From NCBI GenBank assembly GCA_017397655.1, contig JAFQIG010000056.1, forward strand, positions 6,306 to 70,305: a stretch of 64,000 nt of DNA, in the 5' to 3' direction. The notes beneath the pieces are model-generated. The model did no database searches. It was not told the DNA's origin and saw only the letters and a program-made list of their open reading frames with translations. This document shows positions 41,468 through 42,672 of this stretch, one piece after another; the stretch's first letter is position 1, and each line of letters starts with the position of its first letter. Source of the stretch: Clostridia bacterium. Lineage in GTDB: Bacteria; Bacillota; Clostridia; Oscillospirales; Acutalibacteraceae. The position numbers were made by a program, and so were the translations under genes.

Positions 41468-42672
41468 ACGTTTGTCACCCCAAATGTCAACAACATATTC
41501 CTATAATGCTCATACTGCTTCTGCCTTGCTTCGATTTCGGCAGGAAGACCGATATTAAGATCGGAACAGATAGCATCAAAATTATCAAGAACTTCTACAA
41601 GACGATCCTGAACATCACGAGGTGGTAAAGGAATTTCAATACTCTCTATTGATGGGACATTTGAATGAACAACCTTGCTTTTAACTTTTCCTTTGCTCTT
41701 TTGCTGTCTTGCCAAAGAAGTTGACAAAACATAAGAGAGATACTTGGGGTTCTGATTATGTTTCAGAACAACTATATCACCACCGGCAAGACATTTTTCG
41801 TTGCCTACATAAGCAGTTGACTTCGCAATATCTTCAACGCTTTCACCGGTGATTGCAAAAAGAATATCTCCATACTCAAAATATTTGGGACTGTTCACAT
41901 ATTCGAGTTTGGTGTGTGAATAGCATTTGTCAAACCATATTCCGTATTTGGTATAAATTTCACCGTATCTGACACAAGGAATCCCTTCTTCGGTTACTTC
42001 ATCTCTCTTAATTCCTGCACCACGATAAATATCGGTTGCTATATCACCAAGTTTAACTCTGTGTATTTCTCCGATTCTGTCAAACGAAAGTAAATCATCA
42101 CGATAATACTCATACTGCTTTTTACGAGCTGTAAGCTCTGCTGTGAGCTCTGCTGTGAGCTCTGCTGTGAGCTCTGTAAAATTGTCCAGAATACGGACAA
42201 TTTCATTCTGCACCTCCATGGGCGGTACAGGGATTAAAAAGTCTTCTGTAACATGCAGAGAAATCTGTGGAAGAGAACCCATTCCTGAGGCAGCATCTCG
42301 GAATATTTGAATATTATTCTTCAAAACATAGTACAAAAATTTAACGGAGACTTTATCATCTGTTGTATAAGCCCACATTTCATTTTTAAATGTAAAAGGC
42401 TTGTCGTAATATACAACATCTATCACTCCACGCGACTGAACTAAAACAGCAGGGACTCTTGTAATATTAGCGTTTGGAATATCATCTTCAAAAGCATTAA
42501 TAACAGTTTTTCCACCGGCAAATACTTTTATATCACCATCAGGGTTATCAATCTCTTTCATTTTTCCTGCAGTAATAGGAGTTCCTTTTAATCGAGTGTA
42601 GACATCTTTTACCTTTCTATACTCTACACCATTGGGACAAAGTTCCTCTATCAGTTGTTCAAGTTTTGTCAT
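41464..42672 (-). CDS. hsdS: Type I R-M specificity subunit HsdS (type IC-like central region)
   Basis: Two TRDs separated by ...[31 protein letters not shown], with C-terminal ...[19 protein letters not shown]. The start is taken at [18 protein letters not shown]. Confidence 0.9.
   Translation of the reverse strand: [402 protein letters not shown]
42128..42175 (-). repeat. 12-bp tandem repeat x4 inside hsdS encoding (TAEL)4
   Basis: Plus strand gctgtaagctct, then gctgtgagctct three times (42128-42175). Confidence 0.95.

Follow-up and report, generated by a model that had tools for sequence, protein, structure and literature searches.

The 64-kb stretch of DNA analysed here (the window), from an uncultured gut/rumen-type Clostridia, carries a 12-bp tandem array inside hsdS, the gene for the specificity subunit of a type I restriction-modification system. 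We conclude that this array is very probably a TAEL ruler, situated in the coiled-coil helix at the centre of an intact HsdS of the EcoR124 family, holding three units, falling in the N7 spacer class and open to mutational change in unit number. All coordinates are positions in the window, HsdS residue numbers are those of the 402-residue protein, and the length of the linker is counted as the residues between the F of the LD.F motif and the R of the R.KQY motif. The element itself comprises two features.

42128..42176, minus strand: 12-bp tandem array, 4.1 copies, encoding ELTA x4.
42127..42177, minus strand: 17-residue linker, T166-A182, between the F of LDNF and the R of RKKQY, with F165 and R183 conserved.

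Tandem Repeats Finder gives the array a period of 12, 97% matches, no indels and a score of 91, and places it among only six distinct tandem arrays with a score of at least 50 in the window. Read on the plus strand it consists of gctgtAagctct and then three unaltered units gctgtgagctct, and on the minus strand of GAGCTCACAGCA three times followed by GAGCTTACAGCT, in agreement with the preliminary description of this DNA, which had counted four tandem units, three identical and one with a single substitution. Within its 49 nt the period-12 self-match runs perfectly for 31 nt, and by our own estimate the chance expectation of such a run, about 64,000 x 4^-31, is negligible. It is read in frame within the minus-strand open reading frame at 41464..42690, the translation of which contains the four ELTA units and the 10-residue stretch after them that had been described; in the canonical register the same peptide reads TEL, three TAEL and TA. 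Tandem, in-frame, near-identical 12-bp units, at least two in number and situated in the central conserved helix, are the mark of a TAEL copy-number switch, and they are present here. By analogy with the characterised enzymes, it is the length of this 17-residue linker that would serve as the ruler.

The array belongs to an intact EcoR124-family (type IC) restriction-modification system, encoded by three genes.

43515..45083, minus strand: hsdM, N6-adenine methyltransferase subunit, 522 residues (TIGR00497, 1e-223).
41464..42672, minus strand: hsdS, type IC specificity subunit, 402 residues, arranged as target-recognition domain (TRD) 1, central conserved region (CR), TRD2 and C-terminal CR.
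37837..40902, minus strand: hsdR, restriction/translocase subunit, 1021 residues (Pfam EcoR124_C, 6e-64).

We place the system in type IC because HsdR matches EcoR124I HsdR (2w00_A) over its full length at 7e-260, HsdM matches EcoR124 HsdM (7bst_D) at 8e-190, and the best solved relative of HsdS is the EcoR124I subunit 7bst_A (1.5e-33; entry title 'EcoR124I-Ocr in the Intermediate State'). HsdR, with its EcoR124_C domain, and HsdM are far closer to EcoR124I than to other type I families, the match of HsdM to EcoKI HsdM being 4.5e-13. HsdS is matched twice by Pfam Methylase_S (5e-32) and once by the PADLOC model Specificity_I (1e-93). It shows the type IC layout, in which TRD1 is followed by a central CR with tetra-amino-acid repeats, then TRD2 and a similar C-terminal CR; such tandem repeats (TAEL, LEAT, SEAL, TSEL) in the central CR are the defining feature of type IC (PMC10030836). 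The genes run hsdM - DUF4238 - hsdS - orf184 - hsdR on one strand, so that the type IC order hsdM, hsdS, hsdR is kept with two genes intercalated. The longest hsdS frame begins at GTG 42690; the true start is probably ATG 42672, which gives 402 residues, is preceded by a GAGGGA ribosome-binding site and overlaps the stop of the DUF4238 gene, and relatives align to the frame from query residue 7 on. That the repeat is of the EcoR124 type, as first proposed, is supported; EcoR124I is the best solved-structure match of all three subunits.

How such a repeat sets the recognition site is known from the E. coli enzymes. EcoR124I has two repeats and recognises GAA N6 RTCG, EcoR124II has three and recognises GAA N7 RTCG, and units are gained or lost between them by unequal crossing-over (Loenen et al. 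2014, PMC3874165). Each TAEL accounts for about 0.34 nm and 36 degrees of TRD separation and rotation, EcoDXXI and EcoprrI also combine three repeats with N7, and EcoR124I/EcoDXXI hybrids constructed with changed repeat numbers recognised altered sites, in line with prediction (PMC3874165). The preliminary description had given the same rule, two units for N6 and three for N7, altered by unequal crossing-over, and on this it agrees with that source. In the window protein the central helix would likewise pair antiparallel with the C-terminal conserved helix, as is established for the family, and the length of the paired helix would fix both the distance and the twist between the two TRDs. This would in turn decide how many unspecified base pairs lie between the half-sites or, put more precisely, how far apart the two methylated adenines are, with each 12-bp unit adding four residues, just over one helical turn, and corresponding to one base pair. 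As the units are tandem, near identical and in frame, slippage or unequal crossing-over could add or remove them while leaving the gene unbroken, and each gain or loss would change methylation and restriction specificity alike. At this locus such an exchange would produce N6 or N8 derivatives, after which sister cells would lose the mutual protection of their DNA.

In the predicted structure of HsdS the repeat lies in the first of two conserved regions.

42085..42219, minus strand: central conserved region, one alpha-helix (residues 152-196), first coiled-coil strand between the TRDs in the AlphaFold2 model.
41488..41619, minus strand: C-terminal conserved region, helices 352-370 and 376-395 with a kink at G-L-P, partner of the central helix.

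In the AlphaFold2 model (m45d21880be54; mean predicted local distance difference test score 87.4) the repeat lies inside a single continuous helix of 45 residues, residues 152-196, between the two TRDs. A Foldseek search with this model returned HsdS structures, 7bst_A among them at a template-modelling score of 0.63; among solved structures the TRDs have no characterised close relative. The C-terminal CR likewise has 17 residues between F365 and R383, and in an alignment of 37 two-TRD relatives the invariant residues fall exactly 200 apart (L162/L362, E179/E379, R183/R383, Q186/Q386, Y187/Y387 and Y190/Y390). Since both conserved regions hold 17 residues between F and R, the 17-residue state is the one in which the two coiled-coil strands are equal in length, and, with the halves of HsdS in exact 200-residue register, the 13-residue, EcoR124I-like state of the majority is the asymmetric one. 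Three repeats have been described as apparently optimal (PMC3874165), and the equal length of the two conserved regions in the window fits this.

Linker length among relatives is strictly quantised in steps of four residues, with values of 5, 9, 13, 17, 21 and 25 across the samples. Among the query and its 120 nearest proteins, 119 of which could be scored, one linker has 5 residues, six have 9, 85 have 13 and 28, the query included, have 17. Loci from metagenomes and from genomes of the same GTDB family divide into three with 9 residues, 42 with 13, 42 with 17 (including the window) and one with 21, and 80 species-representative genomes into one with 9, 44 with 13, 34 with 17 and one with 25. 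An identical 17-residue linker, coded by near-perfect DNA repeats, is found in Gardnerella, Petrotoga, Clostridium faecium, Dorea, Gemmiger and many uncultured Clostridia. The window array is thus an ordinary example of a known device, in its commonest long form, because 17 residues are found in 34 of the 80 species genomes and the identical linker recurs in several phyla. The longest array seen belongs to an uncultured Eubacteriales metagenome-assembled genome (MAG) (L161, CAOKER010000001.1), with a 25-residue linker, SALTAELQAELQAELQAELQAELQA, and a perfect period-12 run of 52 nt; the 21-residue linker is that of L059 (OLNC01001305.1). These two are candidate N9- and N8-class enzymes, respectively, or inactive ones.

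Relatives that are nearly identical to one another differ in this array. The loci L075, L052 and L059, with linkers of 13, 17 and 21 residues, show 98.4-99.3% identity over 3.0-6.7 kb, with no gap apart from the repeat; they come from three different assemblies, the first a human-gut metagenome by its record name and the other two carrying no source label. A second pair, L070 (17) and L098 (13), is separated by one mismatch and one 12-nt gap in 3,561 nt. Overall, near-identical strains share 98.4-99.6% over 3-6.7 kb and differ by one or two units only. The same is seen in proteins, where a 9-residue form (P0071) has TRDs 100% identical to those of seven 13-residue forms (P0017/18/60/111-114), and another (P0062) to those of P0021/44-48, each one TAEL apart. 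Two interior units taken from the same locus are identical in 46% of pairs, two from different loci in 4.8%, and synonymous codons differ between lineages, the window's GAGCTCACAGCA being unique in the set compared. Such homogeneity within loci, together with lineage-specific codons, is the signature of a continuing gain and loss of units, and the comparisons show repeated changes of copy number in relatives. The suggestion that this is a locus type prone to copy-number change holds for the family, natural alleles one or two units apart being found in near-identical backgrounds.

At the window locus itself, these observations have to be set against the possibility that the repeat is static, a conserved coiled coil held at its optimal symmetric length that varies neither over ecological time nor within the population. 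Several points speak for it: 17 residues equal the length of the partner helix, a state that the literature calls optimal; there are just four 12-bp units, one of them already substituted; the lengths 13 and 17 dominate every sample, suggesting selection on length; and the search gave no variant allele of the window gene. The exact HsdS sequence, with either start, is absent from a collection of 15 billion proteins, and no conspecific allele was found among 5.8 billion protein clusters (best match 79% identical), among JGI/ENA metagenome contigs (best 79%) or among GTDB species genomes (best 78%). A fixed length would nevertheless sit poorly with conspecific strains of relatives that lie one or two units apart, and with units homogenised within loci while their synonymous codons differ between loci. 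Furthermore, 12-bp HsdS repeats of Mycoplasma pneumoniae differ between strains and passages (PMC8836594), and EcoR124I and EcoR124II interconvert in E. coli by unequal crossing-over (PMC3874165). We consider a static repeat possible but on the whole doubtful, and population variation at the window locus plausible.

The unit count requires a choice of register, and here we depart from the preliminary description, according to which the four copies predict a longer spacer. In the HMMER alignment of the window HsdS with EcoR124I HsdS there is one insertion only, of four residues, in the linker, which has 17 residues in the window and 13 in EcoR124I. The count of four arises because the units were counted in the ELTA register, in which EcoR124I, canonically a two-copy enzyme, already has three, F-T-[ALTA][ELTA][ELNM]-R. 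The longer spacer is therefore a register artefact: the window linker exceeds that of two-TAEL EcoR124I by just four residues, which is the three-TAEL length, and the window allele is, on this alignment, a three-TAEL allele in the class of EcoR124II, EcoDXXI and EcoprrI. Since the linker is that of EcoR124I plus four residues, the site should be bipartite and of the N7 class, with the methylated adenines 8 nt apart, rather than N8. A general counting rule follows the same lines: linkers are best aligned to EcoR124I, or counted in residues from LD.F to R.KQY, 13 denoting the N6 class and 17 the N7 class, as raw DNA repeat counts exceed the true TAEL number by one. A true four-copy state, beyond the two of EcoR124I and the three of EcoR124II and with an N8-type spacer, would find some comfort in the 4.1 DNA copies, in a peptide that parses as ELTA x4 and in natural linkers of four TAEL (21 residues, L059) or longer (25 residues, L161). 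It is very unlikely given the single extra unit relative to two-copy EcoR124I HsdS, the equality of the 17-residue linker with the C-terminal CR, the three units that the ELTA register would give to EcoR124I, and the frequency of the 17-residue class, about 40% of relatives. The behaviour of a four-unit enzyme would in any case be an extrapolation. Gubler and Bickle reportedly also treated altered repeat numbers in 1991. It is likewise very unlikely that assembly has distorted the copy number, a short-read assembler having collapsed or expanded the array or chosen one of several lengths, so that the true or dominant state would be another: while tandem repeats are a weak point of de Bruijn assemblers and the genome is an 88-contig MAG, a 49-nt array with a 31-nt perfect run should be shorter than the usual reads and final k-mers, and the resulting protein has the common 17-residue linker and an exact 200-residue internal symmetry.

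Some points do weigh against a mutable three-unit ruler of the N7 class in an intact system. The N7 prediction is drawn from homology in length to four enzymes that have been characterised, and the written N number can also be shifted by the geometry of the TRDs. The operon is interrupted by two extra genes. Variant alleles at the window locus were not found, the closest relatives being at most 79% identical, and the source genome is a 2.57-Mb MAG in 88 contigs, so that the copy number is the assembler's consensus. We also looked at other modes of hsdS variation. A shufflon, a second hsdS or an invertible cassette is rejected, as only one gene in the genome matches Methylase_S and there are no spare cassettes. 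Phase variation of hsdS by frameshift (Atack et al. 2020, PMC7383803) is likewise rejected for the window, where no 4-5-nt simple repeat tract was found in the operon; the 12-bp unit keeps the frame and the array is therefore unable to switch the gene off. The systematic survey of type I repeats in that work left out units divisible by three (PMC7383803).

Frameshift-type tracts are common among the relatives. Of the related type IC loci, 54 of 98 in one set and 28 of 80 in another carry a tetranucleotide tract exactly between the second CR of hsdS and a third TRD-CR module; most tracts are (GACA)n, in 5-58 copies, with AGAG, GAGCA, AACGG or ATCGA in some loci (examples, all in related loci, are L021:4210-4237, L040:4171-4298, L124 from 2367 onward and L141 from 2706 onward). 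Tract lengths that keep the frame give an HsdS of about 600 residues with three TRDs, and about half of the close relatives have such a protein with three TRD/conserved-region modules; many of the relatives' contigs end within the tract. The window hsdS has neither tract nor third TRD, and its 184-residue gene fills the hsdS-hsdR slot, where many relatives hold the third TRD. The arrangement in the relatives resembles that of extended, phase-variable hsdS in F. nucleatum, with AAGAC[n], and M. haemolytica, with G[n] (PMC7383803), and by analogy the tracts look like switches, widespread in the Firmicutes of gut and rumen, that toggle HsdS by frameshift between a two-TRD and a three-TRD form. 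A more ambitious reading would join the two devices: in anaerobes of gut and rumen the array may be a live contingency ruler, in frame and with several states; the source population would hold a mixture of two-, three- and four-unit (N6/N7/N8) alleles, selection would keep the array near the symmetric 17 residues, and in the wider clade a (GACA)n-controlled third TRD would form a second, independent layer of rapidly varying restriction and methylation specificity. We put this forward tentatively and think it rather unlikely in full.

Two further genes share the operon.

42659..43540, minus strand: DUF4238 gene, 293 residues (Pfam DUF4238, 3e-29), between hsdM and hsdS and overlapping both.
40913..41467, minus strand: 184-residue gene (orf184), no family, between hsdS and hsdR.

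Their stops and starts overlap those of their neighbours. Neither gene has a PADLOC hit or a match in NCBIfam, and the 184-residue gene has no family match at all. Just one of 97 related loci shares either of them, L084, which carries a DUF4238 gene 91% identical. The hsdM-hsdS and hsdS-hsdR slots of related loci also have gaps of about 0.6-1 kb and seem to hold variable cargo; the DUF4238 gene is cargo, outside the ruler device. A second short 12-bp tandem repeat lies at 41397-41428 (2.7 copies, 90% matches, plus-strand unit ATAAGTGATGTA), in the 5' part of the 184-residue gene, the part that codes for its hydrophobic N-terminal segment. In a promoter and terminator scan of the operon, promoter-like sites were no more numerous than in shuffled sequence. 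The nearest HsdS relatives are from rumen and gut Clostridiales and Lachnospiraceae MAGs. The system is patchy: of 301 genomes in the family, 15 have a match, and the single match within the genus is a different allele. HsdS proteins 52-76% identical and with the same TAEL linkers occur in Bacteroidales, Paludibacteraceae, Synergistaceae, Gardnerella, Petrotoga and Treponema (L108, L114, L121, L126, L130, L156); these records point to a wide horizontal spread of the type IC lineage or to binning errors in some MAGs.

The window locus itself adds little that is new, being one more uncharacterised type IC system with a spacer class (N7) predictable from sequence. Of modest value is the comparative by-product, namely the four-residue quantisation across hundreds of type IC systems from gut and rumen and the 13/17/21 series in near-identical strains, which together indicate that the classic laboratory switch of E. 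coli operates widely in natural anaerobe communities. There the TAEL switch could raise restriction barriers between sister strains, and, should the multi-state ruler prove true, it would give the gut microbiome a source of epigenetic and phage-defence heterogeneity that surveys have largely passed over.

Among known systems, natural variation in unit number has been demonstrated in NgoAV of Neisseria gonorrhoeae (type IC, LEAT/EATL) and in HsdS of M. pneumoniae, where the number of 12-bp units in the dimerisation helix differs between strains; for the window it is seen only in relatives. In NgoAV the LEAT number, together with a downstream frameshift, goes with GACN6TGC or GACN7TGC (PMC6789123), and NgoAV has a poly-G frameshift tract, which the window lacks. 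EcoR124I (7bst, 2w00; GAA N6 RTCG) is the best solved match of all three subunits and has the same fold and coiled coil, with two TAEL and a 13-residue linker against three and 17 in the window. The closest counterparts in spacing are EcoR124II (EcoR124/3), EcoDXXI (TCA N7 RTTC) and EcoprrI (CCA N7 RTGC). Unlike these, the window system is chromosomal, resides in an uncultured anaerobic Clostridia host, has the DUF4238 gene and orf184 as two extra operon genes, and borders its array with TEL...TA instead of TAL...NM; its TRDs are unrelated to theirs in sequence, hence the half-sites should differ. As for what they share, the HsdS layout is the same, the LD.F ... RKKQY.YYRD flanking motifs are common to all, HsdM and HsdR are close homologues, and the linker, judged by its four residues more than EcoR124I, has the same three-TAEL length.

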